Below are positions 9,146 to 48,226 of a DNA stretch of 64,000 nt, one piece after another. Below the pieces are notes generated by a model. That model did not search any database. It was not told the DNA's origin and saw nothing but the letters and a program-made list of their open reading frames with translations. Source of the stretch: an uncultured Prevotella sp. GTDB taxonomy: Bacteria > Bacteroidota > Bacteroidia > Bacteroidales > Bacteroidaceae. The stretch spans positions 80,304 to 144,303 of the forward strand of contig CAMOVK010000001.1 of the NCBI GenBank assembly GCA_946627325.1. Direction: 5' to 3'. Each line of letters opens with the position of its first letter. Positions within the stretch are counted from its first letter, which is position 1. A program made the position numbers and the translations under genes.

Positions 9146-9233
9146 GGAAAGTATGCTTTTTCGGCTCGGAAAGTATGTCTTTTCAACTCGGAAAGCATAT
9201 CTTTTCGACTCGAAAAGACGTGCTTTCCAAATC
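9146..9233. repeat. array 1: four 22-bp palindromic units
   Basis: GGAAAGTATGCTTTTTCGGCTC / GGAAAGTATGTCTTTTCAACTC / GGAAAGCATATCTTTTCGACTC / GAAAAGACGTGCTTTCCAAATC. Confidence 0.93.
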
Positions 9234-9342
9234 GAGTTTGTAAACTGCTGAAAATCAACGGATAAAGAATCTGATTTGAGCAGAAATTATTTCCGGCAAA
9301 AAAAACATATCAACTTTCGGACAATAATCGGAAAACAATCAT

Positions 9343-9350
9343 TAAATTTG
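9343..9350 (+). promoter_or_regulatory. Bacteroidetes -7 promoter box (TAAATTTG) for folP-cdaA
   Basis: TAnnTTTG match upstream of the ATG at 9375. Confidence 0.6.
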
Positions 9351-9374
9351 CATACCATTTCATTTCTATCATTG

Positions 9375-10238
9375 ATGACCACTTTTTCTCCAGTCACTAC
9401 AATCTGCTGCCGCGGCAGACTTCTCGACTTCTCGACGCCTATTGTCATGGGCATACTCAACACGACGCCCGACTCGTTTTTTGCCGGCAGTCGCCGACAG
9501 ACGGAACACGAGATAGCCGCAAGGGCTGACGAAATCGTCGCTCAAGGAGCAACCATCATCGACATAGGAGCATTCTCCACACGTCCTGGTGCAGACATAG
9601 TGAGCAAGGAAGAGGAAACAGCCCGACTCCGACGAGCGTTGGAAATAGTCAGGCGATGCCAGCCCGATGCCATCGTAAGCATAGACACCTACCGCCCTGA
9701 AGTGGCACAAATGTGCGTAGAAGAATATGGTGCCGACATAATAAACGACGTGTCAGAAGGCGGACTTGCAACCACAGCCGACAGTAATGCGAAACAAAAG
9801 CACAACGAAGTGCCTCAAATGTTCAAAACGATAGCACAACTGAGAGTGCCTTACATTCTGACATCGGTACAAAACAACATAAACACCATGCTCAAAAGAG
9901 CAGCCGAAGAAATAACAATGCTACATAATCTGGGAGCAACCGACATCATCTTCGACCCCGGACTGGGATTTGGAAAAACACTCGACGACAACTATAAAAT
10001 ACTCAACCAACTCGAAAAGACAACCATTCTCAACAAGCCATTGCTCGTAGGAGCATCGCGAAAATCAATGATATGGCGACTGCTCGACACCGATGCAAAC
10101 AACGCACTCAACGGAACAACCACCATCAACACCATCGCACTCATGAAAGGAGCATCCATACTACGCGTTCACGACGTAAAAGAAGCGATGGAATCGATAA
10201 AAATCGTAGAAAAACTAAAAACGTCAAACAATATATAA
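9375..10238 (+). CDS. folP: dihydropteroate synthase
   Basis: MGILNTTPDSF, DIGAFSTRPG, DPGLGFGK, GASRKS, LRVHDV. Start placed at the ATG at 9375, downstream of the -7 box. Confidence 0.95.
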   Translation: MTTFSPVTTICCRGRLLDFSTPIVMGILNTTPDSFFAGSRRQTEHEIAARADEIVAQGATIIDIGAFSTRPGADIVSKEEETARLRRALEIVRRCQPDAIVSIDTYRPEVAQMCVEEYGADIINDVSEGGLATTADSNAKQKHNEVPQMFKTIAQLRVPYILTSVQNNINTMLKRAAEEITMLHNLGATDIIFDPGLGFGKTLDDNYKILNQLEKTTILNKPLLVGASRKSMIWRLLDTDANNALNGTTTINTIALMKGASILRVHDVKEAMESIKIVEKLKTSNNI

Positions 10239-10269
10239 CAAAACGAAAAACCATACACATTATTAAATT

Positions 10270-11049
10270 ATGCTATCATTTCTCGACTTCGGAATAAAAG
10301 ATTTCATCGACATTTTGCTCGTAGCAACTCTGCTCTACTACGCCTACAGGCTGATGAAAGAGTCGCGCTCGATAAACATATTCACTGGAATACTCATCTT
10401 CATAATCATCTGGCTCGTTGTAAGTCAGATACTCGAGATGAAACTTCTCGGAGCAATCCTCGACAAAATGGTCAGCTACGGAGTCATAGCACTACTCATT
10501 ATCTTCCAAGACGAGATAAGAAAATTCCTCAACACCATAGGTGCACATCAGCGATTTAATCGCGTACTGCGATGGTTACGACCACGACACGGAAAAGAAA
10601 CGACCGACATGAGCAGCTATATGCCAGTAGTCATAGCCTGTATGAATATGGCAAAAGGAAAAGTAGGAGCACTAATCGTAGTCGAACGAGAAACCCCATT
10701 AGACGAAGTAATAAAATCAGGAGAAACAATCGACGCAAACATCAATCAAAGACTCATCGAAAACATATTCTTCAAGAACTCACCGCTACACGACGGAGCG
10801 ATGATTCTACGTCGGAAACGCATCTGCGCCGCAGGCTGCATACTGCCCGTTTCCCACAACAACGACATACCAAAACACCTCGGACTGCGACACCGAGCAG
10901 CCTTGGGAATGGCAGAAGAAAGCGACGCAATAGCAATCGTAGTCTCTGAAGAAACAGGACACATAGCTGTAGCAATGAATGGAACCATACGAGAAAGACT
11001 CTCGGCAGAAGAACTCGAAAGCCTACTCACACAAGAATTAACAAAGTAG
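10270..11049 (+). CDS. cdaA: diadenylate cyclase CdaA
   Basis: Three N-terminal TM helices; SPLHDGA and GLRHRAA motifs. Confidence 0.93.
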   Translation: MLSFLDFGIKDFIDILLVATLLYYAYRLMKESRSINIFTGILIFIIIWLVVSQILEMKLLGAILDKMVSYGVIALLIIFQDEIRKFLNTIGAHQRFNRVLRWLRPRHGKETTDMSSYMPVVIACMNMAKGKVGALIVVERETPLDEVIKSGETIDANINQRLIENIFFKNSPLHDGAMILRRKRICAAGCILPVSHNNDIPKHLGLRHRAALGMAEESDAIAIVVSEETGHIAVAMNGTIRERLSAEELESLLTQELTK

Positions 11050-11119
11050 CATTTTGTAGTTTCAGCGTTTTTTCGTACCTTCGCGCCCCAATTTATCAAG
11101 TAACATTTAAGTAATAATT

Positions 11120-12316
11120 ATGAAGATTTTAGTACTCAACTGCGGATCGTCGTCAATCAAGTATGCACTCTACAACATGGACGATCGCTCAGTTATGGCG
11201 CAAGGAGGTGCCGAACGCGTTGGATTAGACGGAGCATTCGTCAAAGTGAAACTGCCAAACGGCGAAAAACGAGAAATAAAACACGACATTCCAGAACACA
11301 CAGCAGGCGTAAATTTCATCTTCAAACTGCTTACCGACCCTGAAATAGGAGCAATCAAATCATTAGACGAAATCGACGCCGTAGGTCATCGTATGGTACA
11401 CGGAGGAGAAAAGTTTGCAAAAAGCACACTTATAAACGACGAAGTACTCGCCGCATACGAAGATTGCATAGAGCTGGCACCACTACATAACCCAGCAAAC
11501 CTAAAAGGAGTGAAAGCCGTTCAAGAACTAATGCCAAACCTGCCACAAGTAGGTGTGTTCGACACAGCATTCCATCAAACCATGCCACAACGTGCTTTCA
11601 TGTATGCACTGCCTTACGAACTATACGAGAAATATGGCGTACGCCGCTACGGATTCCACGGCACAAGCCACAGATATGTGTCAGCACGCGCTTGCGAATT
11701 CCTCGGACTTGACTACCAAAAACAACGCATCATCACTTGCCACATAGGCAATGGAGGCTCAGTGGCTGCCATCGAAAACGGAAAGAGCATCGACACATCA
11801 ATGGGACTGACACCGCTCGAAGGCGTAATGATGGGTACTCGAGCCGGAAACGTTGACGCAGGAGCAGTGCTCTATCTGCAAAACAAACTCGGACTTAATG
11901 CCGATGCCATGTCAGACCTGCTCAACAAGCAGAGCGGAGTGCTGGGTATCAGCGGTGTTTCGAGCGACATGAGAGAAATAGAAGCACAGTCGGCAAAAGG
12001 GAACAAACGCGCACAACTCGCACTCGACATGTATTTCTATGCCGTAAAGAAATACGTTGGAGCTTACGCAGCAGTAATGGGAGGATGCGACATCATAGTA
12101 TTCACAGCCGGAGTGGGCGAAAATCAGAGCGATTTGCGTGAAGAAGTGTGCCGTAACATGGAGTTTATGGGAGTGAAAATCGATGTGGAGAAAAACCTAA
12201 ACACACGAGGAGAAGAAGCAATCATATCTACCCCAGACAGCAAAGTAAAGGTCGTTATCATACCAACCGACGAGGAACTGATGATAGCAACCGACACTAT
12301 GGAACTCGTGAAATAA
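11120..12316 (+). CDS. ackA: acetate kinase
   Basis: LVLNCGSSSIK, HRMVHGG, APLHN, FDTAFH, YGFHGTSH, TDEE. Confidence 0.97.
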   Translation: MKILVLNCGSSSIKYALYNMDDRSVMAQGGAERVGLDGAFVKVKLPNGEKREIKHDIPEHTAGVNFIFKLLTDPEIGAIKSLDEIDAVGHRMVHGGEKFAKSTLINDEVLAAYEDCIELAPLHNPANLKGVKAVQELMPNLPQVGVFDTAFHQTMPQRAFMYALPYELYEKYGVRRYGFHGTSHRYVSARACEFLGLDYQKQRIITCHIGNGGSVAAIENGKSIDTSMGLTPLEGVMMGTRAGNVDAGAVLYLQNKLGLNADAMSDLLNKQSGVLGISGVSSDMREIEAQSAKGNKRAQLALDMYFYAVKKYVGAYAAVMGGCDIIVFTAGVGENQSDLREEVCRNMEFMGVKIDVEKNLNTRGEEAIISTPDSKVKVVIIPTDEELMIATDTMELVK

Positions 12317-12361
12317 TCACACATACATTCTGAACAGTATATTACATTCTCAATTATTGAC

Positions 12362-15013
12362 ATGAAACGATTGTTGATAGCAGCCTTTGCCATGGCAATG
12401 ACTGTGGCAGCAGCTTTCGCACAGAGCAACAACCATTTTGTAACAGATGATGCTCGGCGAACAAAAATAGAGAACGACTTCACTGAAAAGATGAAGCAAG
12501 TAGGCAAACAGTTCTTCAATCTGAAGGGTAAAAAATACACACAGGAAGAGGAAGGTGCCCTGAAATTTCTCTATGCCTATATGCCCACTGCCGACGTGAC
12601 AGACTATCCAACGGATTTCTTCCTGAAAAACGTGAGATGTTCGTTTGCAGCACGACAACAAATGGCATGGGGAAAAGACGTGCCCGAACTGCTATTCCGA
12701 CACTTCGTACTGCCCGTTCGTGTCAATAATGAGAATCTCGACTCATCGAGATGGGTGTTTTTCGACGAACTGAAAGCAAGGGTTGAAGGCATGACGATGA
12801 AAGATGCAATACTGGAAGTAAACCACTGGTGTCATGAACGTGTGACATATCAACCTTCCGATGCTCGCACATCATCACCATTAGCATCTATTCGCTCCGC
12901 TTACGGACGATGCGGAGAAGAGTCAACATTCACCGTTGCAGCACTGAGGTCAATAGGAATACCTGCCCGGCAAGTATATACACCACGTTGGGCACATACC
13001 GATGACAACCATGCATGGGTAGAAGCGTGGGCTGACGGGCAATGGTTCTTCCTCGGAGCATGCGAACCCGAACCAGTATTAAACCTCGGATGGTTCAACG
13101 CTCCTGCGTCAAGAGCAATGCTGATGCACACCCGCGCATTTGGCGACTATAACGGACCAGAAGAGGTAGTACTGCGAACAAGCAACTTTACAGAGATAAA
13201 TCTGATTGACAACTATGCGCAAACGGCTCTCATTAGCTTTCGCATAATTGACCGCGACAACAACCCTGTAGAAGGTGCAAAGGTTGAATTCAAAATCTAT
13301 AACTATGCCGAATTCTATACAGCAGTAACGAAATACACTGACAAAGACGGCAAAACATTCCTCACATCAGGGCTGGGCGACCTTGTAGTATGGGCTTCGA
13401 AAGACGGAAATTATGGCTTCAAACGTGCCCGTTTCGGCAAAGATACCAATGTAGAGATATGCCTTTCCCGCTCAACCGACGGCGATAAAATGCAGAAAAT
13501 TTTCGAACTCGACTCCATGGATATAGTGCCACCAGCCGAAAAAGTGCGCCTCCCAGAAGTAAGCGAAGAACAAATAGCAATCAACAAACGACGCTTCGAC
13601 CAAGAAGACTCTATTCGCACAGCATACATGGCAACATTCCTTGACAGCGCAAAGGCATCTCGCATAAGTCAGAAAGGATGGAAGTATCTGGTTAAAGCTC
13701 GTGGCAATCACCGCGTTATAGCCGATTTCATCGGGCGACATCAAGACAATTACCCTCGCGTGGATAGTCTGCTCGCATCGTTAAGCGATAAAGACCTGCG
13801 CGATATGCCAATGGAAATACTCGAAGACAACTACCTCGCTAGAAGCAGTCAACTCTGTCCGCGAGTCGAAGACGAAATGATTATCTTGCCATATAAACAT
13901 CTGTTGCAAGACGTTTTCAGCAAGAAAGAAGTCGAGAAATTCCGCTCCGACCCTTCTTTGCTCGTCAGTTGGGTAAAGAAAAATATCCGTTTGAACCCTG
14001 ACAGCCGTGCCATGCGAATAGCACAAACACCTGTCGGAGTATGGCAATCACGATTTACCGATAAGCGTTCACGAGATATCTTCTTCGTTTCACTTGCCCG
14101 TTCGATTGATATTGAAGCCCGACGCGATGTCGTTACAGGGAAAGTTCAATACAAAAATGGCGCCAACTGGATTGACGTAGATTTCGATTCCACCGAGCAG
14201 ACATCAGCACCTACAGGCACACTAATACTCCGTTTTACCCCCAACGCTATCGTTGACGACCCGAAATACTACAGCCATTTCACCATATCGCGTATCGTTG
14301 ACGGTTCTGCACAATTGCTCGCCTTCGACGAAGGACAAGTGGATATGGGTGGAGGAACATCGTGGAGCAACACTTTCCGCGACGGAACTAGTCTCGATGA
14401 AGGCACCTACATCCTTATATCTGGCATGCGTATGGCTAACGGATCAGTGCTTACGACCAATCAGACATTTAATATCCGACGTGGCGAAACAACCACACTC
14501 GACCTTCATCTGCGTCAAAGCGACGAAGAAGTATCAGTGATTGGCTCATTCGACTCTGAAACTAAGTTCCAAATAATCGACCAGCAGACCTTCAATATCA
14601 TAGACGGACAAGCACCTGTGAGCATTCTTTCGCAGACAGGACGTGGATATTTCGTAGTCGGACTGATAGGTGTTGGACAGGAACCAACTAACCATGCACT
14701 ACGCGACATAGCCAAAATGAAGTCGCAACTCGATGCATGGGGACGTCCTTTCGTTTTACTTTTCGAAAGCGAAGACGATGCCCGCAAGTTCCATCACGAT
14801 GGTCTGGCTGAGGGATTACCATCGAAAACAATCTTCGGAATTGACACCGATGGACAAATCAGGCATCAAATAGCCGCGCAGATGAAACTACAAAACGAGA
14901 AACAACTGCCTATATTCATTATCGCAGACACGTTCAACCGCGTCGTATTCTGTACACAAGGATATACAATCGGACTTGGTGAGACACTCCTTTCGACTGC
15001 AAAAAAACTCTAA
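12362..15013 (+). CDS. secreted transglutaminase-like domain protein
   Basis: Signal peptide; GRCGEES (Cys) and NHAWVEAW (His) motifs; a second degenerate domain. Confidence 0.85.
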   Translation: MKRLLIAAFAMAMTVAAAFAQSNNHFVTDDARRTKIENDFTEKMKQVGKQFFNLKGKKYTQEEEGALKFLYAYMPTADVTDYPTDFFLKNVRCSFAARQQMAWGKDVPELLFRHFVLPVRVNNENLDSSRWVFFDELKARVEGMTMKDAILEVNHWCHERVTYQPSDARTSSPLASIRSAYGRCGEESTFTVAALRSIGIPARQVYTPRWAHTDDNHAWVEAWADGQWFFLGACEPEPVLNLGWFNAPASRAMLMHTRAFGDYNGPEEVVLRTSNFTEINLIDNYAQTALISFRIIDRDNNPVEGAKVEFKIYNYAEFYTAVTKYTDKDGKTFLTSGLGDLVVWASKDGNYGFKRARFGKDTNVEICLSRSTDGDKMQKIFELDSMDIVPPAEKVRLPEVSEEQIAINKRRFDQEDSIRTAYMATFLDSAKASRISQKGWKYLVKARGNHRVIADFIGRHQDNYPRVDSLLASLSDKDLRDMPMEILEDNYLARSSQLCPRVEDEMIILPYKHLLQDVFSKKEVEKFRSDPSLLVSWVKKNIRLNPDSRAMRIAQTPVGVWQSRFTDKRSRDIFFVSLARSIDIEARRDVVTGKVQYKNGANWIDVDFDSTEQTSAPTGTLILRFTPNAIVDDPKYYSHFTISRIVDGSAQLLAFDEGQVDMGGGTSWSNTFRDGTSLDEGTYILISGMRMANGSVLTTNQTFNIRRGETTTLDLHLRQSDEEVSVIGSFDSETKFQIIDQQTFNIIDGQAPVSILSQTGRGYFVVGLIGVGQEPTNHALRDIAKMKSQLDAWGRPFVLLFESEDDARKFHHDGLAEGLPSKTIFGIDTDGQIRHQIAAQMKLQNEKQLPIFIIADTFNRVVFCTQGYTIGLGETLLSTAKKL

Positions 15014-15024
15014 ACTTCAGTTGT

Positions 15025-15915
15025 TTAGAAATAAATAATCACCGCAAAGAGTGCTATCCAGCCTACTATACACCCTTGAATGAAGCGGTCGGAAAGCAGA
15101 ACTCGAGTAGGACTGCCACTCTCGGCATCTACTATCGTAAGCTGAAGATAGCGTATAATGCCTGCAAGCACAAATATCGACGTCAGATAAACATAATTGC
15201 TTTCGTATCGCTCGACAACGTCGGGCGATACTGTGTACATGACATAGCAAATCATTGTGATTGATGCAACAACGCTGATAATCTGATTTACGAAAGTCAG
15301 ATTATAGCGATTGACATTGTCGCGCATCATTTTTCCACTCTCTTCGTAAATCAACACATCGTCGCGACGTTTAGCAAACGCGAGGAAAAGAGCCAGAAGG
15401 AAAGTCATCAGTATAAGCCAATGTGAGATATAGATGCCGCCTGCCACTCCTCCAGCCAAGACTCTCAAGACGTAGCCCACTGCTATCGTAAACACATCAA
15501 CGATGGCTATCCGTTTCAGACGTATGCAATAAGCCACGTTTATGGCTATATAGGCTACGATTACTGCCGTAAGTGAGACATGAGAGTCACTTCCAAGCCC
15601 TACGAACGATACGCTTTGAGCAAGGAGAATAGACACAATAAAACATATAGACATTACCAAATAGGCTTTTCCTAAAGTCACTTTTCCACTCGCGATGGGT
15701 CGCATTCGCTTTAAGGGATGTTGCTTGTCAGACTCTCGGTCGTATATATCGTTAAGGCAATAAATACCACTTGCGGCTAAACAGAATGCTAAAAAAGCCA
15801 AAAACGATGACAACAGACAATCGATATCTGTAAGACGACGGTCAAAAAACAATGGCAAAAAGACGAAAAAGTTTTTCGCCCACTGTTCTATACGCAGAAG
15901 TTTGATTATTGGCAT
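15025..15915 (-). CDS. UbiA-family polyprenyl-phosphate phosphoribosyltransferase (DPPR-synthase type)
   Basis: RIEQWAKN, YCLNDIYDRESDKQHPLKRMRPIASG, FAKRR, SPT motifs; multi-pass membrane protein. Confidence 0.88.
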   Translation of the reverse strand: MPIIKLLRIEQWAKNFFVFLPLFFDRRLTDIDCLLSSFLAFLAFCLAASGIYCLNDIYDRESDKQHPLKRMRPIASGKVTLGKAYLVMSICFIVSILLAQSVSFVGLGSDSHVSLTAVIVAYIAINVAYCIRLKRIAIVDVFTIAVGYVLRVLAGGVAGGIYISHWLILMTFLLALFLAFAKRRDDVLIYEESGKMMRDNVNRYNLTFVNQIISVVASITMICYVMYTVSPDVVERYESNYVYLTSIFVLAGIIRYLQLTIVDAESGSPTRVLLSDRFIQGCIVGWIALFAVIIYF

Positions 15916-21030: not shown

Positions 21031-21139
21031 CGTTTTTATGCTCAAACAACCAAAAATTATGTTTCTTTTTTGTCTATATTTTGCTGGTTAAAATCACTTT
21101 GAAATGGATAGCAATTTGGGTAGTATTTACATAGAAATC

Positions 21140-21227
21140 GGAAAGCATATCTTTCCGATGCGAAAAGGCATGCTTTCCAAGCCGAAAAGCACGTCTTTCC
21201 AACACGAAAAGGATAGCTTTCCAAAAT
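21140..21227. repeat. array 2: four 22-bp palindromic units
   Basis: GGAAAGCATATCTTTCCGATGC / GAAAAGGCATGCTTTCCAAGCC / GAAAAGCACGTCTTTCCAACAC / GAAAAGGATAGCTTTCCAAAAT. Confidence 0.93.
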
Positions 21228-21270
21228 TGAACGCTACCCTCTTCATTTTCAATAGTTTAGCTCTGTGGTG

Positions 21271-24224: not shown

Positions 24225-24228
24225 ATAT

Positions 24229-27665: not shown

Positions 27666-27730
27666 GTTGGTTATCGTTTTACTTATCGTTAGTTTATCAA
27701 TTGGTTTTGTATGTCTATTCTTTCTGATTT

Positions 27731-27818
27731 GGGGAGATATGCTTTCCGTTGTGGGGAGATATGCTTTTCGACTTGGAAAGACGTGCTTTCCGATGCGAAA
27801 AGACGTGCTTTCCGAACT
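27731..27818. repeat. array 3: four 22-bp palindromic units (inside the dcw operon)
   Basis: GGGGAGATATGCTTTCCGTTGT / GGGGAGATATGCTTTTCGACTT / GGAAAGACGTGCTTTCCGATGC / GAAAAGACGTGCTTTCCGAACT. Confidence 0.92.
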
Positions 27819-27827: not shown

Positions 27828-29117
27828 TCAGCCCGTTACAGACGCTGTATCTTCATCCTTCTTTTTTGCCCATAGGCTTACGCTTAATATAGCTCCGATG
27901 TATATGCAGTTGATGATTGTCGATGTTCCTCCTCGGCTGATTAGCGGCAGGGGCTGCCCTGTCACGGGCGCCAGTCCTACGGCAACCATCATGTTGATTA
28001 GTGCTTGGAGTGCTAAAAGCAGTGCTAATCCCATTGATAGCAGCGCAGGGAAGGTGTTCTCGCATCGATTGGCTATCCTTCCTACGCGGAACAATAGGAT
28101 TACGTATAGGAATGCTACGAATATGGCTCCGCCCAACCCCATCTCCTCGATGATGATAGCATAGATGAAATCGGAATATGCCTGTGGCAGGAAGTCGCGC
28201 TCAACACTATTACCTGGACCACGTCCTGTTATTCCCGACGAAGCTATGGCTATGCTCGAATGTCCCTCTTGGGCAAGCGAGTCGAGATTATAGTCATCAG
28301 GAGCGACCTCTGTTTTGACAAGAAACTTATTAAGTCGGTTTCGCCATGTTTTTGCTCTATGCAGTATGCTGCGGCTTTTCTTCTTCGAAGCGACCTTAGC
28401 AGCATCTGTGGCTTCGTTGGAATAGGCTTCAGCTATTACTTCTTGATTATCTGCCTGTGCCGTATCACTGCTCTCTGACTTATCGGCTGCAGCGGCAAGG
28501 AACATTCCGCCAATGATTAAGGCAATAGCTATAGTGCAAAAACCGAACAATTTCCCCAGCTGCGACATTGGAACCCTGCCTATAAACATCATTATTACCA
28601 CGACGGTAAACAATAACGCGGCTGTAGAAAGATTTTCCAATCCGATGGGCAAAATCAAACAGGCACTCATAATCAATATGTAAGGCATTGCCTTCTTGTC
28701 GGCTCCGTTTTCTGTTTGCATAGCACTCAGAATTTGAGCCACTGCCAATATGAGCGAACCCTTAGCTATCTCTGAAGGCTGAAACTGGAAAACACCTAAA
28801 TCAATCCATCGGCTACCCTCGTTGATGGTACTACCCATAATCAGCACCCATAACAATCCTATAATCGACAAACCAAGCAGAATGGGAGTGGCTATCTTGT
28901 AGTACTGGCAGCGAATGTTCATCACTATGACCGTACAAAGCCAGCCCACAGCAAAGATTGAAAAGTGGCGAATGATAGGACCCATATATCCCCGACTCTT
29001 ATAAGACAGTGAACTCGAAGCGCTATACACCTCGACTATGGAAATGATAAAGAGGAAAAAGAATACCATCCATATCACCTTGTCGCCCTTAAATATATTG
29101 TTTATTTTCTTACTCAT
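27828..29117 (-). CDS. ftsW: SEDS peptidoglycan glycosyltransferase FtsW
   Basis: RWI...FQPSEIAK, SDFIYAIIIEE, PVTGQPLPLISRGGTS. Confidence 0.95.
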   Translation of the reverse strand: MSKKINNIFKGDKVIWMVFFFLFIISIVEVYSASSSLSYKSRGYMGPIIRHFSIFAVGWLCTVIVMNIRCQYYKIATPILLGLSIIGLLWVLIMGSTINEGSRWIDLGVFQFQPSEIAKGSLILAVAQILSAMQTENGADKKAMPYILIMSACLILPIGLENLSTAALLFTVVVIMMFIGRVPMSQLGKLFGFCTIAIALIIGGMFLAAAADKSESSDTAQADNQEVIAEAYSNEATDAAKVASKKKSRSILHRAKTWRNRLNKFLVKTEVAPDDYNLDSLAQEGHSSIAIASSGITGRGPGNSVERDFLPQAYSDFIYAIIIEEMGLGGAIFVAFLYVILLFRVGRIANRCENTFPALLSMGLALLLALQALINMMVAVGLAPVTGQPLPLISRGGTSTIINCIYIGAILSVSLWAKKKDEDTASVTG

Positions 29118-37578: not shown

Positions 37579-37847
37579 ATTTTCATATTTTCTAAAATTT
37601 AACTTTCGTTTACTTTTCAACGAATTAACGAAACTTATTTTTACATATTCTCGCTCAAATCGATTGTTTTGTTAATATACCTTTTATTTGTTAAAAACGC
37701 AAGCTAAAAGAAACCTTATTTTTGAAAACTTCCAGAATAAACTCTTAAAAATAGCGATTTTTGACTCAGAAAGCCAAACGTCTGATTATCAACACTTAAG
37801 CTTTAGATATTGAAAAATCGCAGAATAAAGCGAGAGATATTAAACTG

Positions 37848-38001
37848 CAAAAGATACATCTTTCAAGGCGCAAAACCGACTTATTTGAATGTTGCCACAA
37901 GTGTTTTGACACCGAAAAATCATACTTTTCAAAACGAATACATATGCTTTCCGACTCGGCGAGCACGTATATTTAAGTCGAAAAGCATATCTTTTCGGCT
38001 A
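37848..38001. repeat. array 4: degenerate 22-bp units (4 recognisable, up to 7 in phase)
   Basis: From 37914: GAAAAATCATACTTTTCAAAAC / GAATACATATGCTTTCCGACTC / GGCGAGCACGTATATTTAAGTC / GAAAAGCATATCTTTTCGGCTA. Also CAAAAGATACATCTTTCAAGGC at 37848, exactly 66 bp earlier. Confidence 0.75.
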
Positions 38002-39294: not shown

Positions 39295-40299
39295 ATGCAA
39301 CAGATAATTCCTCCCGTTGACAAAGCACTGCTCAGGCGCGAGCTAACAGCCGATAAGCAACTACGAATGACCAATAAGAGCAACAACGAAATCTACATCG
39401 TTGACTACCACAATGCACCAAACGTAGTAAGAGAAATAGGCCGCCAACGTGAGGAGGTGTTCAGAGCTGCCGGAGGAGGAACTGGAAAAGCTCTCGACCT
39501 CGACCAGTTCGACACGATGGAAAACTGCTACAAGCAACTCATCGTATGGAACCCAGAAGAAGAAGAAATTATCGGAGGATACAGATACAAAAAAGGAAAC
39601 GAGGTAGATTTCGATTCCGATGGGCAACCAATACTTGCCACAGGGCACATATTCCACTTTTCTGACGAATTCATCAAGGATTATCTGCCATGGACCATTG
39701 AACTCGCACGCTCATACGTCACACTACCATACCAAAGCTCGAAAATGGGCTCGAAAAGTCTATTTGCACTCGACAACCTATGGGACGGACTGGGAGCACT
39801 GACAGTAATAATGCCAGACGTAAAATACTTCTTCGGAAAAATGACGATGTACCCATCATACGTCAGAAAAGGAAGAGACATGATTTTATATTTCCTGCGA
39901 AAACATTTCAGCGACAAAGACCGACTGATAATACCGATGAAACCGCTGAAAATCGAAAGCGACGAAGAGGAACTCGAACAACTCTTCTGCGAAAACAGTT
40001 TCAAGGAAAACTACAAAATTCTAAACCGAGAAATACGCAACCTCGGAATAAATATCCCACCACTCGTTAATGCCTACATGGGATTAAGTCCAACAATGCG
40101 AATGTTCGGAACAGCCATCAACGACGGATTCGGCGACGTAGAAGAAACGGGAATACTCATAGCTGTTGACGAAATCCTTGAACAAAAACGCATACGACAT
40201 ATCGACTCATACATCAAAGAACATCCAGAAGCATTGCGCATAACATCAGGAGCAAACAAAATATTTTTCGAAGATAAACAAACTAAAAATATACAATAG
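39295..40299 (+). CDS. GNAT-family N-acyltransferase (GlsB/ChoA/OlsB-like, often annotated 'hemolysin')
   Basis: REEVFRAAGGGTG, D.FD, IIGGYR, ELARS, LWDGL, IPPLVNAY. Confidence 0.85.
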   Translation: MQQIIPPVDKALLRRELTADKQLRMTNKSNNEIYIVDYHNAPNVVREIGRQREEVFRAAGGGTGKALDLDQFDTMENCYKQLIVWNPEEEEIIGGYRYKKGNEVDFDSDGQPILATGHIFHFSDEFIKDYLPWTIELARSYVTLPYQSSKMGSKSLFALDNLWDGLGALTVIMPDVKYFFGKMTMYPSYVRKGRDMILYFLRKHFSDKDRLIIPMKPLKIESDEEELEQLFCENSFKENYKILNREIRNLGINIPPLVNAYMGLSPTMRMFGTAINDGFGDVEETGILIAVDEILEQKRIRHIDSYIKEHPEALRITSGANKIFFEDKQTKNIQ

Positions 40300-40432
40300 T
40301 TTGCACATTAGAAAAATATAACTATTTTTGCGAACGAATTTAGTAAACCTGATAGCCATACCGACACTAAAGGGGTTGAGTCAGTGTGGCATATCTACAA
40401 ACCAAACAAAAACCCCAATAAACAAAAACAAC

Positions 40433-42544
40433 ATGAAGAAAATTTTTACTCTAATTGCAATTGCCTGCTTTGCGCTGACAATTTCTGCACAGCCAGGAGG
40501 CAGAAAAAAGGCTTGGGAAGACTACGGAGAGCTCGTACAAATCTTCTACGAAGACTTCTCAAACATGACAACTGGTAGCGTCGGAGCACCAGACTTCAAC
40601 ACAACCGACATGTATATCGATCCACCAACGGAATATCCTTTTTGGTGGAACATCAATCCCAAGTACATGACAACAGGCAATACCGATACGACAAAACCCA
40701 ACTGGGGTGGTATGAACGTATGGCCTGCAGGTGGATGCATCTACCTTGAATCAACTGTAGATACGGAAGGAGCACGAATATCGCTTCCTAACATCGATGG
40801 TTCAGCAAGAGGCGGACGAGTAATCTTGCGATTCAAGGCTCGTACAGACGACGGAAAGATATGCGACGCTGGCTTCATTGAAGGTGCCGAAACCAACAAC
40901 ATGGGAAAAGAGTGGAGAAACTTCCCACAAAGACCGCTCGGAACAGTCACATCAGAATGGACAACATTCGAATTCATGTTCGAAGAAGTGGGAACATCAA
41001 GCATATTCATTATAGGAGCTGCTCTTAATTTTGGGGATAATCTCAACCCAATATACATTGACGACGTAGAGCTGTTGCAAATCGAACCAAACGTGGAAGC
41101 ACCAGTGCCACTGCCACATAGCAACTATGTAGGTTCAGGACTCACCGCATCGTTCCAAGCAAACTGGAATGCAGTGGAAGGCGCAGAGAAATACCTGATT
41201 AGCGTATTCCAAAAAGATAGATTTAACAACCCAACCAACTACTTCCTTACCGACCAAGAAGCAGATGGCACATCTTATATCGTTGAAGGTGTAGCATCAG
41301 GCGCAACATATTACTACACAGTATCTGCAGTACAGGGAAGCAACGTTTCACTGCCATCAGCAGCAATGCCAGTAGTAGATATTGCACAGCCGGAAAACCT
41401 TGTATCAACAGAAATCGAAAACGGCAAATACACCGCTTCATGGACACCTGTACCAACAGCCGAAGTGTATGACTATTTGGCATACTACGAGCGTACAGTG
41501 GATACAGATAAGACTATCGCTGTAACCGATGAGCCAATCGCAGACCTCAAGTTCCCAGCAAACATGCAAGGCGACTTAGCAGGTCAATCATCAACCTACA
41601 CATCAGAAGGACTCATTGACGCAACAAACAAGTTCCGCAATCAGAACTACGACTTCGACACTAACTACATGTCACACCTCGACCGCTACAACATGACAGA
41701 CTTCAAACAAGCAGGATGGCTCTCAACAATGTCATTCCCTATGAAAGACTGTCTGAAACTCGACGGATGGTGCTACCAATTTGGTCTCGGCGATGCTGGA
41801 CTACAATCATCTGACATCGACCTGTCAAACAATAACGGAGAATTCGACATTGAGTTCGAAAGTTATGGATTTATCGATGAATTCGAAACAATGACAACCC
41901 CAGTTGTTGCAGTATTCAACTACGATAACGAATCACGCGAATACAAACAGTCAGAACTCGTTTATTGCGAACAAAGTGCTGAAGCATGGGAAACAAAAAC
42001 AGCACACCTGACCACTGGTTCTGAGCGCACAATCGTAGGTATCTTCGCTGTAAGAGGAGCCGAAAACCTGCTACTGAAAAACCTGAAGATAAACCAAGAA
42101 GTTAAAGCAGGTGACACAATGCTCGACCCATTCTATGCAGATCTGCGCACATCAAAAACAGAAATAGAAGTAGAATTGCCTGGTCAAGTTGTTGACGCAA
42201 ATGTTTATCACAAAGTTAAAGCTATCCGCACAACTACTACCGACAACCCCAACAAAGCATTCGACGAGGTTATCGGACAGTTTGGCAACCTCGAATATGT
42301 AGGCAAGGGAACATCTACAGGTATTTGTCTGCCTAACGTTACACTCTCAGGTGCAACCGTTCAGTTGTTCGGTGGACAACTCGTTGTAAACAACGAAGGT
42401 AGAAACCGAGTAGAAGTGTATAACCTCGCAGGTGAAAAAGTGTTTGAAGACCGCACAGGAAATGCTAACGTAAACATTCCTGTACAACAACACGGCACAT
42501 ACATTGTCAAAGTTGGACGACAGACAGTGAAGGTGGTTCTCTAA
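40433..42544 (+). CDS. secreted protein with FN3-like domains and T9SS-type C-terminal domain
   Basis: Signal peptide MKKIFTLIAIACFALTISA (ATG 40433); FQANWNAVEGAEKY...TYYYTVSA FN3-like segment; tail VYNLAGEKV...GTYIVKV...KVVL. Confidence 0.75.
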   Translation: MKKIFTLIAIACFALTISAQPGGRKKAWEDYGELVQIFYEDFSNMTTGSVGAPDFNTTDMYIDPPTEYPFWWNINPKYMTTGNTDTTKPNWGGMNVWPAGGCIYLESTVDTEGARISLPNIDGSARGGRVILRFKARTDDGKICDAGFIEGAETNNMGKEWRNFPQRPLGTVTSEWTTFEFMFEEVGTSSIFIIGAALNFGDNLNPIYIDDVELLQIEPNVEAPVPLPHSNYVGSGLTASFQANWNAVEGAEKYLISVFQKDRFNNPTNYFLTDQEADGTSYIVEGVASGATYYYTVSAVQGSNVSLPSAAMPVVDIAQPENLVSTEIENGKYTASWTPVPTAEVYDYLAYYERTVDTDKTIAVTDEPIADLKFPANMQGDLAGQSSTYTSEGLIDATNKFRNQNYDFDTNYMSHLDRYNMTDFKQAGWLSTMSFPMKDCLKLDGWCYQFGLGDAGLQSSDIDLSNNNGEFDIEFESYGFIDEFETMTTPVVAVFNYDNESREYKQSELVYCEQSAEAWETKTAHLTTGSERTIVGIFAVRGAENLLLKNLKINQEVKAGDTMLDPFYADLRTSKTEIEVELPGQVVDANVYHKVKAIRTTTTDNPNKAFDEVIGQFGNLEYVGKGTSTGICLPNVTLSGATVQLFGGQLVVNNEGRNRVEVYNLAGEKVFEDRTGNANVNIPVQQHGTYIVKVGRQTVKVVL

Positions 42545-42619
42545 TAAAGGAACGACGACCTTAAAAGGTCATTCGCAAACACAAATAGAAGATTTAACAT
42601 TCATAAAAAAATAAAAATT

Positions 42620-45154
42620 ATGAGACACTTTATTCGTACATTTTCGGTCTTATTACTTCTCGTTGCAGGAGTATTAAGCGCAGGCGCACAGGGTGTACAG
42701 AGCTTCCGTGACCTGCTGACGGCTGGCGCATCTGCACCAAGCGAAATTCAATTGCCCAGCAATGCGCAGGTATTGAAACTCGACAACAAACGCGCGCTCC
42801 TTTGGGATGGAACAGCAGGACTCCTCCTCTACATTGACAATCCCTCTGGAGTATTTACCAACCTCGAATACGGTACTCCATATTACGACGGCTATACCGC
42901 TTATTCTATTAGCGGTACTATGAACGCCGTATATGAAGACTACTACTATGACTTCTACATCAGTTCAAACAGCTCTGCTGCACTAACATTCGGAGAAAAA
43001 GGAACTCTGACACCTAAAGTAGTCACTGGACAGGAAGCAATCAATGCAAACCGCCAGAACTTCTACTGCTACGTTCAGATGCACGGAACGATGGACAACA
43101 ACAAGTTCATTGCTGATGACGGAACGGAGTTTTATATCGTGGAAACCTACAACACAGGTGTTATAGGTAAGTCTGGAGCTGGCACACTGAAAGCTGTTGT
43201 TGGTGATATCACCATGACAAACAGCATGGACTTCCTGACTATCATTGAGTCACAAGCTTGGACAGCCGACGAAAGCTCATCGTTCGATGCCGAAGTGAAG
43301 AGCCTTGGCGAATTAAAATCATTAGGTTACGGAGATGTTCGTTTCAAATTCGAAGAGGATAAAGTTAAGGTTCTTAGCCTACTTAATAACGACGGTTATG
43401 TTAACCTTTACCTTTGGGATGGCAGCGATGGTGTTCTGGTCAATGGCTACCTCAATGACAGCGGAGACTTAGATTTCGCACCGGGAACTATTCTCAATGG
43501 TGGAATTGAAGCAATGTATATGGGTTCTTATGGAAATTCACTTTACTATGCTCCTAATTATTATTCAAACCACACCAAACTGTTCACTCCTGGAAATGTC
43601 ACAAGTTTCTCACCAATAAAGAAAACACTTGCTGAAGTACATGAGACTAACACCTCAACAACCTACGAATTCTCTTATCTCGCAATTAAGGGAAAAATCG
43701 TTGAAGGTAATTTGGTTGATGGCGACGTATCAATACCGCTCCTCAACACAGCTTGTCCTACTGCCGATTTGATGAAATATGAAGGCAAGACAGGTACGTT
43801 CTATGGTCTCTACCAGAGCCAAGGCGGCGAATACCTTCTCCCCATCAGTGAATACTACTTCCTCGAAGAAGATACTCCAACAGAGAAAAAAGTTTATTCG
43901 ATAGCAGAACTTCGCCAAGTTTCTGACAACGACACTTATACTCTCCCTCTGGCAGCCGAGAACGACTATCAGATGCAAGTGCTCGCAGTCAATGGTTCGA
44001 TTGTTTATCTCTGGGATGGCGAGAATGGTCTCGTTGCTATTGACCCAACAGAAAGCTTCCAACAGCAGCATGTAGGAACATTCATGTATGGTGATGTGAA
44101 ATTCGAAGTAAGCAATCCTTATGGTGATGGTAATGAATATGTTATCAACTTTGCATCTATCCAGCAATTCTCAGAAGTTGCCGACTTCCTCCCTGCAGTA
44201 GAGAGAACGACTCCAGTAGAAGGCGATTTCGTTAAATTCTCTGCAACAATAGAAGGCGATACTGACGAAGGAGGATGGCAAAGCATTACTGTTAACGACA
44301 AGAAATACTGGATCTCTGACGATTTGATTGACGTAGAAGGTACTCTCGCTGACTACGTTGGCAAGACTGGAACAATCACCGCTATCTTCACAGGCGATTA
44401 CGAAGAGGAAGGATTCCTTTCTGTTTATCCTGACAACTGGTTTGTTGAAGACACTCCAGAATATGAAGAACTGACCTCACTCGATGCTATCTATAAGCAG
44501 ACAGAGGCTGGCAAGTATAAGTTCAACGTTCCAGCTGACGGCGACTATAAGGTTCAATTCCTTGCTCTCAACGGCGATAAGGTTTATCTCTACGACGGAA
44601 CAGACGTATTCCGCTTCACTCTTGCTTCTGTAGCAAATGCTCCTCGCAAGGTAAAGATCATAAGTGTTGCAGATCGTGTAGGTGCTTATGTCAGTGGCGA
44701 AATGATTATCTCTCTCGGTGGAGAAGAAGACCTGCTCGACCCAAGCACTATTAATTTCAGCGAGAAACAGGAACTGATGGCTCCTATAGCTAAGACCTAC
44801 GTCACAAAACGCTACGACTACATCGAGTACGAGTCAACTGTTGAGATGTCTGGTAATACACCTGTAGCAAGTATCGACAATCAATACTTTGTTCTTTCTG
44901 ACGAACTCATCGATGAAACCATTGATTTCAAAGCTATGGAAGGCGAAACAGGCAAGATGAAACTGATAATCGACGGAATGTATGCTTACGTTTATCCGAG
45001 CGACTGGATTACTACTGTAGAAACTGGCATCAACGAGGTTGAGACAGCCGACAGCGCTGCTACTGTTTACTCAATCGACGGACGCCGTGTTCAGAAAGCC
45101 AACCTCCAGAGAGGCATCTACATCCAGAACGGTAAAAAAGTTGCAATTAAGTAA
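42620..45154 (+). CDS. secreted four-repeat (OB-fold-like) protein with short T9SS-like tail
   Basis: Signal peptide; four repeats of S(L/I/F)xEL...V.L(W/Y)DG; tail TGINEV...VYSIDGRRV...RGIYIQNGKKV. Confidence 0.75.
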   Translation: MRHFIRTFSVLLLLVAGVLSAGAQGVQSFRDLLTAGASAPSEIQLPSNAQVLKLDNKRALLWDGTAGLLLYIDNPSGVFTNLEYGTPYYDGYTAYSISGTMNAVYEDYYYDFYISSNSSAALTFGEKGTLTPKVVTGQEAINANRQNFYCYVQMHGTMDNNKFIADDGTEFYIVETYNTGVIGKSGAGTLKAVVGDITMTNSMDFLTIIESQAWTADESSSFDAEVKSLGELKSLGYGDVRFKFEEDKVKVLSLLNNDGYVNLYLWDGSDGVLVNGYLNDSGDLDFAPGTILNGGIEAMYMGSYGNSLYYAPNYYSNHTKLFTPGNVTSFSPIKKTLAEVHETNTSTTYEFSYLAIKGKIVEGNLVDGDVSIPLLNTACPTADLMKYEGKTGTFYGLYQSQGGEYLLPISEYYFLEEDTPTEKKVYSIAELRQVSDNDTYTLPLAAENDYQMQVLAVNGSIVYLWDGENGLVAIDPTESFQQQHVGTFMYGDVKFEVSNPYGDGNEYVINFASIQQFSEVADFLPAVERTTPVEGDFVKFSATIEGDTDEGGWQSITVNDKKYWISDDLIDVEGTLADYVGKTGTITAIFTGDYEEEGFLSVYPDNWFVEDTPEYEELTSLDAIYKQTEAGKYKFNVPADGDYKVQFLALNGDKVYLYDGTDVFRFTLASVANAPRKVKIISVADRVGAYVSGEMIISLGGEEDLLDPSTINFSEKQELMAPIAKTYVTKRYDYIEYESTVEMSGNTPVASIDNQYFVLSDELIDETIDFKAMEGETGKMKLIIDGMYAYVYPSDWITTVETGINEVETADSAATVYSIDGRRVQKANLQRGIYIQNGKKVAIK

Positions 45155-45193
45155 AATAAAAAGCGAAAGCTAAGACACTTTTGCTAACATATC

Positions 45194-45231
45194 AATAATG
45201 GCTGCTGAAGTATGTTTCAGCAGCCATTATT
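45194..45231. terminator. intrinsic terminator between convergent genes, likely bidirectional
   Basis: Perfect 16-bp inverted repeat AATAATGGCTGCTGAA-gtatgt-TTCAGCAGCCATTATT. Confidence 0.85.
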
Positions 45232-45275
45232 TTAATAAAGTAATATAAGAACGTAAGGGTAACAGCTAAAACTTC

Positions 45276-46610
45276 CTACAGCAGCGCCTGTAGGGTTGTC
45301 AGTCGATAGCTGTTACTACCTTTTATGAGTATAAGTGCATTGATGATATTTTCTTGCTTCAATGCTTCTGCTGCTTCATCGGTCGTTGCGAACTTCCGAT
45401 AGTGACACTTTATAGGCATGAAAGCCTCGCCTATCAACCACACATTCTTTACCGACATTTGTCGTATGTGATTGACCAAGCGTCGGTGTTCCTCATCGCT
45501 TGCCGCACCGAGTTCGTTCATTTGAGCCAAAATCATCATCTTATTGTCGGCTTCAATCTGTTCGAAATTGTCCAATGCTGCCGCCATCGATGTTGGATTA
45601 GCATTGTAGGCATCGACTATGAGCTTATTGCGATTGGTCTCTACCAGCTGCGAACGATTGTTAGTAGGTTGATATTCTTCGAGAGCCTCACATATCTTCT
45701 CTGCCTCTATGCCGAAGTTCACTCCTACTGCAACAGCAGCCAGCACATTGTTTATATTGTACTTGCCTATCAGTTGTGTCCTCACCGTGTTCCATTTACC
45801 TGCCGAAGGGTCGTTGTCGCTATCTATTATGGGTTTCTTCCATCGCATTTCCAACATCGGACTGCAGGCAGTCACCTCGCCAACGATACATCCTTCGGAG
45901 TTCTGCAGATTGGTAGAATAAGGTGTAACCCACACGTTGTCGGGCAGTATCTCCATAAGATTATCGTCGTCGGCATTGATGAAGATGGTTGATTCTTCGC
46001 GTCGTGCGAGGTCGGAGTATAGTTCGCCTTTTGTTTTCACCACTCCCTTGAACGAGCCAAAGCCCTGCAAGTGAGCCAGTCCCACATTGGTTATCAGTCC
46101 ATGTGTAGGTTCGGCAGTCTCAGCGAGGGTTTTTATGTCGCCTGGATGGCTTGCCCCCATCTCCACTATTGCTATCTCCGTTTGTCGGTCTATACGCAGC
46201 AGCGTTTTCGGAACACCCACATCGTTGTTGTAGTTGCCTTCGGTAGCCATCACGTTGTATTTCTTTCTCAGCACTGCAGCAATGAGTTCCTTTGTCGTAG
46301 TTTTGCCATTAGTCCCCGTAATGCCTATTACTGGTATGTCAAACTGTCTGCGATGCTCTCTTGCAAGGTCTTTATAAGTCTGCAAGGCATCTTTTACCAA
46401 TATATATCTGTCGTCGCCTTCTTCGACATAGTCACCGTTGTCGATTACGGCATATCTGCAACCACTCTCCAATGCCTTATGCGCGAATTTGTTTCCATCG
46501 AACGATTCGCCTTTCAAGGCTATGAACATTGAGCCTTCGGGGCAGTTTCGGCTGTCTGTTGTAAGGCTGCCACACTGACAATATAATGAATACAATTCCT
46601 TGATAGTCAT
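45276..46610 (-). CDS. murF: UDP-MurNAc-tripeptide--D-Ala-D-Ala ligase
   Basis: [33 protein letters not shown]. Confidence 0.96.
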   Translation of the reverse strand: MTIKELYSLYCQCGSLTTDSRNCPEGSMFIALKGESFDGNKFAHKALESGCRYAVIDNGDYVEEGDDRYILVKDALQTYKDLAREHRRQFDIPVIGITGTNGKTTTKELIAAVLRKKYNVMATEGNYNNDVGVPKTLLRIDRQTEIAIVEMGASHPGDIKTLAETAEPTHGLITNVGLAHLQGFGSFKGVVKTKGELYSDLARREESTIFINADDDNLMEILPDNVWVTPYSTNLQNSEGCIVGEVTACSPMLEMRWKKPIIDSDNDPSAGKWNTVRTQLIGKYNINNVLAAVAVGVNFGIEAEKICEALEEYQPTNNRSQLVETNRNKLIVDAYNANPTSMAAALDNFEQIEADNKMMILAQMNELGAASDEEHRRLVNHIRQMSVKNVWLIGEAFMPIKCHYRKFATTDEAAEALKQENIINALILIKGSNSYRLTTLQALL

Positions 46611-46751
46611 AGTTTATTTATATGATTTATTTTTGCAAAGGTAAGAAAAAGCCAGCTTTTCTTCCAATCTTATCATCATTTATGCAGGAAAAGCGACTGT
46701 ATTTTCAATCAAGAGCCTTGCCTTTCCACATATTTTTCTTACTTTTGCCGT

Positions 46752-48089
46752 ATGAATTGGCAACAACTGATAACCAACAAGCGTCTCGGTCAGGAGTATC
46801 GACACGCTGACCGCTTCGACGACCGTTCTGAGTTCAAGCGCGACTACGACCGTCTTATCTTCTCGGCTCCTTTCCGCCGACTTCAGAACAAGACGCAGGT
46901 ATTCCCCCTTCCTGGCAGCATTTTCGTTCACAACCGATTGACCCACTCACTCGAGGTGTCGTCGCTGGGTATGTCGTTAGGCAACGATGTGTCACGTATT
47001 CTCGTCGAGCGCCACCCCGAATTGCGTGGCACCCTGTTCGAAGAGATTGGCACCATCGTTTCTGCCGCCTGCCTTGCTCACGACTTGGGTAATCCTCCCT
47101 TTGGTCATTCTGGCGAGAAAGCCATTCAGACCTATTTTACCGAAGGCAGTGGCAGCGACCTCCAGAAAGCCGTATCGCCTGAGTTTTGGAACGATGTTAC
47201 TCGCTTCGATGGCAATGCCAACGCCTTCCGTCTGCTCACCCATCGGTTCTGCGGGCGTCGCGAGGGCGGCTTCGTCATGACCTATAGCACCCTTGCCAGC
47301 ATCGTGAAGTATCCTTTCTCATCGTCTGTTGCCACGAAAAACAAGTTTGGTTTCTTCACTCCCGAAGCCCCACTCTATCGTCGCATAGCCGACGAACTAT
47401 GCATACCGCTTATTAGCGATGCCAGTTCCAACGGCGAGCGATGGGCGCGCTATCCGCTCGTCTATCTTGTTGAAGCAGCCGACGACATCTGTTACGAGAT
47501 TATGGACATAGAAGATGCCCACAAACTGAAGGTTCTCTCCTTTGAAGAGACGTGCGACTTGCTACTCGGTTTCTTCGACAAAGAACAGCAGGAAGCCATC
47601 GTTCAGCGCATCGACGAGGAACATATCACCGACAACAACGAGAAAATCGTTTATATGCGAGCCCGCGTCATCGGTTTGTTAGAGCGCGAATGTGTCAAGG
47701 CGTTTGTTGAAAACGAAGAGGCTATCCTTGCTGGCACATTCAGCGGCAGCCTGATAGAAAACATCTCAGAGCAGCCTCGCGAGGCTTACCAGCGCTGTAC
47801 GCGCCTGTCCGTTGAACGCATCTATAAAAGTAAACCAGTACTCGATGTCGAACTGTCGGGTTACAAAATAATGGAAACGCTCATGCAAGTGATGGTCGAT
47901 GCCGTGCTCTACCCCGACCGCTACTATTCGAAACAACTCATCATGCGCGTCTCCAGCCAATACGACATCCATGCCCGCGACCTCGAAACGCGCCTAATGG
48001 CTGTCATCGACTACATCACTGGCATGACTGACGTATATGCTCTCGACGTATATCAGAAGATAAACGGCATCTCCCTGCCAGTAGTCTAA
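46752..48089 (+). CDS. dgt: dGTP triphosphohydrolase (HD family)
   Basis: RRLQNKTQVF, HNRLTHSLEV, AHDLGNPPFGHSGE, EAADDICY, DYITGMTD. Confidence 0.93.
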   Translation: MNWQQLITNKRLGQEYRHADRFDDRSEFKRDYDRLIFSAPFRRLQNKTQVFPLPGSIFVHNRLTHSLEVSSLGMSLGNDVSRILVERHPELRGTLFEEIGTIVSAACLAHDLGNPPFGHSGEKAIQTYFTEGSGSDLQKAVSPEFWNDVTRFDGNANAFRLLTHRFCGRREGGFVMTYSTLASIVKYPFSSSVATKNKFGFFTPEAPLYRRIADELCIPLISDASSNGERWARYPLVYLVEAADDICYEIMDIEDAHKLKVLSFEETCDLLLGFFDKEQQEAIVQRIDEEHITDNNEKIVYMRARVIGLLERECVKAFVENEEAILAGTFSGSLIENISEQPREAYQRCTRLSVERIYKSKPVLDVELSGYKIMETLMQVMVDAVLYPDRYYSKQLIMRVSSQYDIHARDLETRLMAVIDYITGMTDVYALDVYQKINGISLPVV

Positions 48090-48138
48090 AAAAAAATCTT
48101 TCAACATATTGTAACACAACAAGTTACTCTTTCGACGT

Positions 48139-48226
48139 GGAAAGCATATCTTTTCGCATCGGAAAGCATGTCTTTTGGACTTGGAAAGCACGTCTTTCCA
48201 AAACGAAAAGACGTGCTTTCCAAAAT
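48139..48226. repeat. array 5: four 22-bp palindromic units
   Basis: GGAAAGCATATCTTTTCGCATC / GGAAAGCATGTCTTTTGGACTT / GGAAAGCACGTCTTTCCAAAAC / GAAAAGACGTGCTTTCCAAAAT. Confidence 0.93.

Follow-up and report, generated by a model that had tools for sequence, protein, structure and literature searches.

Evenly spaced four-unit palindromic arrays in an uncultured Prevotella, candidate docking platforms for an HU/IHF-family protein

The window analysed here is a stretch of 64,000 nucleotides from an uncultured Prevotella (assembly GCA_946627325.1, contig CAMOVK010000001.1, positions 80,304 to 144,303). It contains five intergenic arrays of 22-bp pseudo-palindromic units, which belong to a family dispersed over the whole assembly. 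The assembly, called G000 below, comprises 1.42 Mb on 54 contigs and is 73% complete. The closest relatives of its MurG are from uncultured Prevotella (73-74%), and the metagenome runs containing its DNA are from animal gut. The five arrays lie where a sequence-only reading of the window had placed them, four being full (90-102 bits in a profile search) and the fourth along the window degenerate (46 bits). An IHF-like palindrome in fixed register beside the arrays had been overlooked in that reading. The features of the window, none of which has a strand, are as follows.

9144..9230, unstranded: array 1, four 22-bp pseudo-palindromic units, 94.7 bits, between the divergent dut and folP genes
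9241..9265, unstranded: IHF-like palindrome by array 1, 33 bp between its centre and that of the last unit, 16/17 positions
21138..21224, unstranded: array 2, four units, 101.9 bits, between the ftsZ 3' end and the gyrB start (both genes on the minus strand)
21235..21259, unstranded: IHF-like palindrome by array 2, 33-bp register, 15/17
27729..27815, unstranded: array 3, four units, 90.3 bits, within the dcw cluster, flanked by ftsW and murG
27828..27838, unstranded: half IHF-like site by array 3, 21-bp register, overlapping the ftsW stop codon, read from the sequence
37775..37799, unstranded: IHF-like palindrome near array 4, 16/17, outside the usual register
37912..37998, unstranded: array 4, degenerate, 46 bits, unit scores 13, 14, -7 and 25, between the divergent mraZ and glsA genes
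48102..48126, unstranded: IHF-like palindrome left of array 5, 33-bp register, 14/17
48137..48223, unstranded: array 5, four units, 96.8 bits, with the dGTPase stop on one side and an unannotated 1097-aa open reading frame on the other (both on the plus strand)
48234-48258, unstranded: weaker IHF-like palindrome by array 5, 12/17

At array 3 the positions in the 33-bp register score just 8/17 and 11/17 for the IHF-like motif, and at array 4 looser units extend upstream to ~37848. Beyond 48.2 kb the window is free of arrays, and a 28-kb gap begins there.

A profile trained on the 16 clear units of the window and iterated to convergence detected 95 arrays in the assembly at a cut-off of 35 bits, and in three block-shuffled genomes the same search stayed at or below 18 bits. 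Copies had been expected well beyond the window, and this expectation was borne out. Exactly four 22-bp units are present in 79 of the 95 arrays, the remainder having 2-7. The unit consensus is TYGRAAAG-N5-CTTTYCR with a 22-bp period, and the entire array is dyad-symmetric. The copies are ~72% alike and have no common tail; their core is sharply conserved but the flanks are not. The 18 arrays without four clean units were excluded from the column, covariation, flank and folding tests, for which 77 clean arrays were kept. Centres and linkers of the units, which had been described as varying, are in fact constrained: a single 5-mer accounts for 96 of 308 centres and two 7-mers for 64 of 231 linkers. 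According to our own crude set of 1083 gene calls, 85 arrays are intergenic, ten are at contig ends (these were excluded from the intergenic-type and matched-null tests), and none is within a called gene. The intergenic arrays divide into 35 in tandem, 30 in divergent and 20 in convergent regions, the last being modestly enriched (P=0.009), and the median distance of an array is 49 bp from a stop and 172 bp from a start. They are found on 39 of the 54 contigs, including all large ones. The 96 gene starts within 450 bp belong to unrelated housekeeping and secreted-protein genes.

The spacing of the G000 arrays is far too even for chance. The 56 within-contig gaps have a minimum of 6591 bp, a median of 11150 bp, a coefficient of variation of 0.46 and a maximum of ~39 kb. 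The earlier figure of one array every ~7-12 kb is to be corrected, for the whole genome, to a median of 11.2 kb and a range of 6.6-39 kb. Not one of the 56 gaps is shorter than 6.5 kb, whereas 45-47% were expected from 5000 random intergenic draws at each of three size cut-offs, and no random draw of 95 intergenic regions reached a minimum gap of more than 2.3 kb. When contig and gene orientation were matched, 0 of 50 gaps were short compared to means of 14-19 in the null (lowest draw 3). Array score was uncorrelated with gap length (rho -0.02), which gives no sign of decay near neighbours, and within the large gaps of G000 no second array family was found, with one possible remnant at C16:10004. 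Three related genomes, G244, G265, and G166, each contain three or four unrelated 22-bp families that are interleaved. If these unrelated families are pooled, gaps below 2.5 kb number 6 of 71 in G244 (21.6 expected), 1 of 33 in G265 (9.3 expected), and 2 of 43 in G166 (11.2 expected). Neighbours in G244 also tend to differ in family (15 of the same family vs 24.3 expected, P=0.008), but such an alternation is not clear in G265 (P=0.08) or G166 (P=0.28). Since unrelated array families also avoid each other, sequence homology does not account for the spacing, and this avoidance across families is the strongest argument that the spacing reflects a shared function.

The flanking palindrome occurs at one exact offset in 55 of the 77 clean arrays, usually on one side only, against a background of 0.95%. 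We take it to resemble two overlapping IHF consensus sites, and it was scored as consensus-like only. In 49 arrays, 33 bp separate its centre from that of the nearest unit, and in six genomes the distance between motif and unit is a multiple of 11 (+/-1). The side on which it is found does not convincingly follow the local GC skew (31 vs 19; the contigs are short). In the Bacteroidetes, an IHF-alpha-like protein is present without IHF-beta, according to the available part of a preprint (bioRxiv 2024.06.24.600358), and a homodimer of this protein would suit a symmetric flanking motif. A-tract curvature was considered as a feature common to all array families and was rejected, since it is missing in the C families.

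Contigs from four runs of four studies are ~99.5% identical to the window DNA. Three of the runs span array 1 without a gap, three span array 2, and one spans array 3; the array C15:7100 is kept in all four runs examined, in one of which exactly one 22-bp unit is missing. The comparison of orthologous regions that had been proposed for finding empty sites gave none at these four arrays in the runs examined. A metagenome scan yielded two loci, one identical to the assembly and one unrelated in context. The strict array pattern was found in 0 of 40 relatives because the consensus differs from species to species. With a relaxed core pattern, 88 of 300 congeners have matches, 28 of these at least 18 (termed array-rich), and outside the genus, two of the 200 genomes searched in the order have a single match each. 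Family A, with units AA(A/T)(G/C)-N5-(C/G)(A/T)TT on a 22-bp lattice and an IHF-like site in 11-bp register, comprises the arrays of G000, G166, G244, G265, G282, G157, G094, G019, and G125; G094, G019, and G125 have the same array architecture without sharing flanks. Evidence for arrays at the same intergenic site in distant species is weak and mixed (P 0.008-1.0 in six end tests).

One member of family A is already in print. PINSR, a repeat of Prevotella intermedia published in 2016, is intergenic, with 177 and 184 copies, lacks terminal repeats, and has been assigned no function, and in the available text of that paper its units, period, flanking motif, spacing, and other families are unmentioned (PMC4755523). 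The published PINSR primers match 29 and 28 of the 32 family-A arrays of G166, a P. intermedia-type congener, so that on sequence grounds these arrays are PINSR. The PINSR positions available from the publication also avoid short gaps, with 1 of 119 below 3 kb and 17 expected for a Poisson process. Neither primer, the two representing the 188-bp consensus, has a match in G000. The G000 family resembles PINSR in being intergenic, of high copy number, and free of terminal inverted repeats, and PINSR in G166 shows the same 22-bp lattice of AAAG/AAAC-N5-CTTT/GTTT with an in-register IHF-like site. However, PINSR copies are near-identical over 188 bp, unlike the G000 copies. By this comparison the G000 arrays are kin of PINSR and not PINSR proper. 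A match to an already described repeat family, named in the earlier reading as a finding that would count against its interpretation, was thus obtained in part.

A connection to the HU superfamily is suggested by the genes that follow arrays in relatives. Arrays of 21-24 bp period are located within 400 bp upstream of 24 of 46 HU-HIG genes and downstream of 1 of 48, while the background for an upstream array is 10-13% of all genes and 20-23% of genes with a long upstream region. The upstream array often belongs to a family peculiar to the respective subclade. Among the HU-HIG loci L211-L260, related genes have related arrays (L231/L233, L249/L251, L229/L230, L223/L224), and at L219 about seven units of a family dispersed genome-wide precede an HU-HIG-wHTH-type gene. 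In a group of oral Prevotella prophages (L128, L171, and related loci, which are one lineage and not independent cases), a family-A array with an IHF-like site lies directly before an HU-HIG gene and a second family-A array ~22 kb away before a tail-related gene. Four units are present in 24 of the 29 prophage loci tested. The total HU_rel count does not follow array abundance. The G000 assembly encodes HU as well as a pair of IHF-like and HU-CCDC81-type proteins, and for the HU-CCDC81 pair nucleoid tethering has been proposed in the available text of Burroughs et al. (PMC5499826). Three candidates for the binder in G000 can be named: canonical HU, the IHF-like partner from the HU-CCDC81 operon, and an HU-HIG protein encoded outside the assembled part. 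Peptidase M15 was rejected as a partner gene, as it is absent from the array-rich G125, G160, G139, and G121, and an array is lacking at the majority of 30 loci. As a separate observation, the G000 peptidase M15 gene (C15:7367-7963), with a cysteine-rich C-terminal extension, has an array upstream, as in a few relatives; there, an HU-HIG gene usually follows, which is missing in G000, with no insertion seen in four runs.

We consider it an even chance that the arrays are genome-wide four-box docking platforms for a bending protein of the HU/IHF family, which would anchor regular chromosome loops or supercoil barriers. Each 22-bp unit would bind one dimer, the four dimers sharing one helical face, and the flanking motif would bind the Bacteroidetes IHF-alpha-like homodimer and add an in-phase bend. 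The bent DNA could then form a compact complex serving as loop anchor or supercoil barrier, of which selection would retain roughly one for each loop of the chromosome. Copies may multiply as passengers of mobile elements or through duplication and subsequently lose the ends of their carrier, and arrays too close to another anchor would decay. The protein platform with a chromosome-wide role that had been proposed from the window is indirectly supported in that the arrays mostly have four units and an IHF-like site in phase with them, exclude one another at close range, show no covariation of hairpin arms, and have unrelated neighbours, the binding itself being predicted only.

Several observations weigh against this docking model. 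Array-free stretches of 16-39 kb contain ordinary genes, and there is no hard upper gap limit. The IHF-like site and the 11-bp AA/TT phasing are absent from some co-spaced families. The array family is not essential in the genus because the family pattern is unmatched in 212 of 300 congeners, and arrays of 20-33 bp were not seen at most of 80 murG loci. Concerning the HU-HIG link, two of the 24 upstream matches (L222, L256) look like AT-rich noise, and most chromosomal members of the HU-HIG clade that includes the prophage protein have no array directly upstream. This clade is present in 26 of the 28 array-rich genomes and in 107 of 272 others (hand count), a comparison that is partly circular (array-rich genomes supplied 12 of the 16 alignment rows, and of the remaining 16 such genomes 14 match) and in which kin among the 28 are not independent. 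An HU-HIG gene is absent from the 73% complete G000 and also from two array-rich genomes, G160 (97% complete) and G236 (83%). In addition, HU-HIG proteins are judged unlikely to be sequence-specific in the text available from Burroughs et al. (PMC5499826). Finally, the five window arrays fold far better than shuffles as single strands (z -4.3 to -8.6).

Mobile elements do carry arrays in some relatives. At two sites where G244 has a family-A array, the orthologous position in G265 (median protein identity 98%) has none, and both arrays are located in elements ~630-650 bp long that end in 14-bp terminal repeats and are bordered by 8-bp target duplications, and these elements belong to the miniature inverted-repeat transposable elements (MITEs).

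G244:C1:83773-84400 and 146089-146740, and L291, unstranded: G244 MITE carrying a family-A array, ISL3-type ends, 8-bp target duplication

At least one 14-bp end is found near 17 of the 28 family-A arrays of G244 and both ends at six, several with 8-bp target duplications, and in G282 the same ends border an ISL3 transposase fragment. Such ends were not detected in the B and C families or in G166, and neither carrier ends nor shared flanks were found in G000, G094, G019, and G125. Because the ends occur at only some family-A arrays of G244 and at none of the B and C families, of G166, or of G000, a MITE can capture and spread an array but is not part of it. The G244 MITE is often accompanied by a 53-bp mini-element of two facing ends. 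A literature search aimed at MITEs did not find this ISL3-ended type. The earlier statement that transposases, terminal inverted repeats, and target duplications are not visible at the arrays stands for the whole assembly, 73% complete as it is: exact 12-nt bracketing repeats are present at only 6 of 95 arrays and all differ, target duplications were not found, and there is no match to PF01610 or PF01797 and neither an ISL3 nor a Y1 transposase was found (other insertion sequence families were not searched). The alternative raised at that time, a domesticated non-autonomous element, is borne out in part by the homologous array in the ISL3-ended MITE of G244/G265, though not in G000. One pair of G000 arrays shares ~310 bp at 87.5% identity, a local duplication, and the identity of nearest-neighbour arrays is slightly above the column null (0.83 vs 0.78).

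These carriers, together with the G265 empty sites and the resemblance of G000 neighbours, are grounds for regarding the arrays as relics of a non-autonomous mobile element without host function, with the spacing arising from insertion immunity or from recombinational loss of close homologous pairs. We nevertheless think this unlikely. Carrier ends are lacking in four genomes with the same architecture, the core is conserved but not the flanks, and the unit number holds at four despite one-unit deletions. Carrier-less families of unlike sequence keep apart, and neither family-specific immunity nor homologous recombination can explain this. It is also rather improbable that the docking protein is not of the HU type and that the arrays are loading platforms for gyrase or SMC or iteron-like sites for a replication or restart factor. 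All evidence for a platform of duplex DNA applies equally to such a protein, G000 lacks HU-HIG, and convergent regions are enriched. In E. coli, BIME-2 binds gyrase and BIME-1 IHF, as given in the available text of PMC2817692. Furthermore, at three viral loci (L136, L157, L185) an O-like gene for a phage replication initiator contains palindromic repeats of 22 bp, although these are probably ordinary iterons. However, no candidate binder gene adjoins any array (96 downstream neighbours were inspected by eye and 78 small basic proteins listed), the co-spaced families have no common A-tract phasing as a single shape-reading enzyme would need, and the upstream HU-HIG link would be left unexplained.

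Still less probable are RNA hairpins or extruded cruciforms that act, like REP sequences, as terminators, mRNA stabilisers, or insulators at gene ends. The folding of the window arrays and the proximity to stops would agree with this, and the difference in RNA stability between the strands exceeds that of the nulls (8.9 vs 5.7-7.2 kcal/mol). Yet the sense strand is not the stabler one (12 vs 18), and 30 of the 85 intergenic arrays are between divergent genes. Compensatory pairing is absent: variable paired positions are less complementary than expected by chance (z -3.8 and -3.2 within units), and pairing of unit 1 with unit 4 is also below chance (z -2.0). Folding is weaker in the real arrays than in arrays reassembled from whole units (-40.6 vs -43.6 for RNA, -21.8 vs -24.0 for DNA), the window has no Rfam match at gathering score, and hairpins do not explain an exclusion over kilobases. 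It is hard to imagine that the units are operators of a single transcription-factor regulon. Tandem palindromic 17-bp boxes and the many gene starts nearby are what operators might look like, but 20 of the 85 arrays are between convergent genes where no promoter is found, the neighbouring genes are unrelated, and even spacing is not expected of a regulon.

The docking model may be extended to the genus, although only tentatively. Prevotella would then possess a sequence-encoded ruler, in which interchangeable four-box families, read by proteins of the HU superfamily including fast-evolving HU-HIG paralogs, compete for slots. One anchor per 5-12 kb would fix the boundaries of loops or supercoil domains, and prophages and MITEs would pick up and spread arrays.

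Plasmid and lambda-type iterons consist of a few boxes of 19-22 bp in helical register, often with an IHF site, but they lie at one origin, as parS and matS lie in one region of the chromosome. The G000 arrays in contrast have no initiator gene nearby, and the analogy to parS and matS that had been drawn fits poorly because the arrays are spread over all large contigs. BrickBuilt of Porphyromonas gingivalis, which had been mentioned as known context, is an intergenic element of the Bacteroidales with internal tandem repeats of similar period, and its capture by insertion sequence ends is comparable to that of the G244 MITE. It is nevertheless a different element, with 19 copies, 1-23 direct 23-nt repeats, a leader, a tail, and IS5-type ends (PMC4596501), compared to 95 copies with four palindromic units and no ends in G000. 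The cyanobacterial HIP1 is likewise a dispersed motif, periodic on the chromosome and with a proposed role in chromosome structure, but it is an 8-bp motif with a statistical periodicity of 18-94 kb in the text available (PMC5861425), while the G000 arrays are composites of ~120 bp with direct exclusion of neighbours. The REP/BIME elements of enterobacteria resemble the arrays as intergenic palindromic composites, present in hundreds, with an IHF site in BIME-1, and BIMEs have been proposed as barriers to supercoil diffusion (available parts of PMC6907758 and PMC2817692). The arrays differ in the GTAG foot, found at just 3 of 77, in the absence of hairpin covariation, in the fixed four-unit lattice, and in the hard exclusion zone, and no RAYT (Y1) transposase was found in the 73% complete assembly. 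Judged by these features, the G000 arrays fail to be members of REP/BIME, MITE, BrickBuilt, or PINSR proper. Nonetheless, as far as the accessible portions of PMC6907758, PMC2817692, and PMC5861425 go, E. coli BIMEs are a precedent for function and HIP1 for selected spacing.

Some further repeats and genes were noted on the way. At seven loci (L012, L024, L025, L026, L048, L049, L069; ~16.3-17.9 kb), sequence-unrelated 22-bp arrays are located 5-7 kb downstream of murG, at about the place of array 2 after ftsZ (gene ends are approximate). Other Prevotella have 8-bp tandem intergenic repeats at several sites within 21 kb (L006:5905-6089, L027:5890-5984, L030:5769-5879, 8554-8725, and 14764-14919), possibly a parallel system. 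G000 contains a second dispersed motif of 50-100 bp, at times in tandem (C10:31823+, C4:15178+, C9:37730+, C2:86032+, C41, C19, C37), which presumably resembles the promoter-region repeat of Bacteroidetes. In the window, several long open reading frames at 1310-8594 and 48474-57448 have no annotation, and those at 48474-51767, 53777-57448, 12362-15013, and 42620-45154 had no NCBIfam match at 1e-10.

In the literature covered, which included few subscription papers, no account of the array lattice, the spacing, or the HU-HIG link was found. Even for E. coli, the available text of PMC6907758 names the determinants of supercoil-domain boundaries as an unsolved problem. With ~100-300 discrete, mappable, and regularly spaced sites per genome, the idea that such boundaries are encoded in the sequence would be directly testable in Prevotella. 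In addition, the orphan repeat PINSR gains an anatomy and a wider family, and the arrays point to possible DNA targets of the HU-HIG proteins, a group expanded in the Bacteroidetes for reasons not yet explained.

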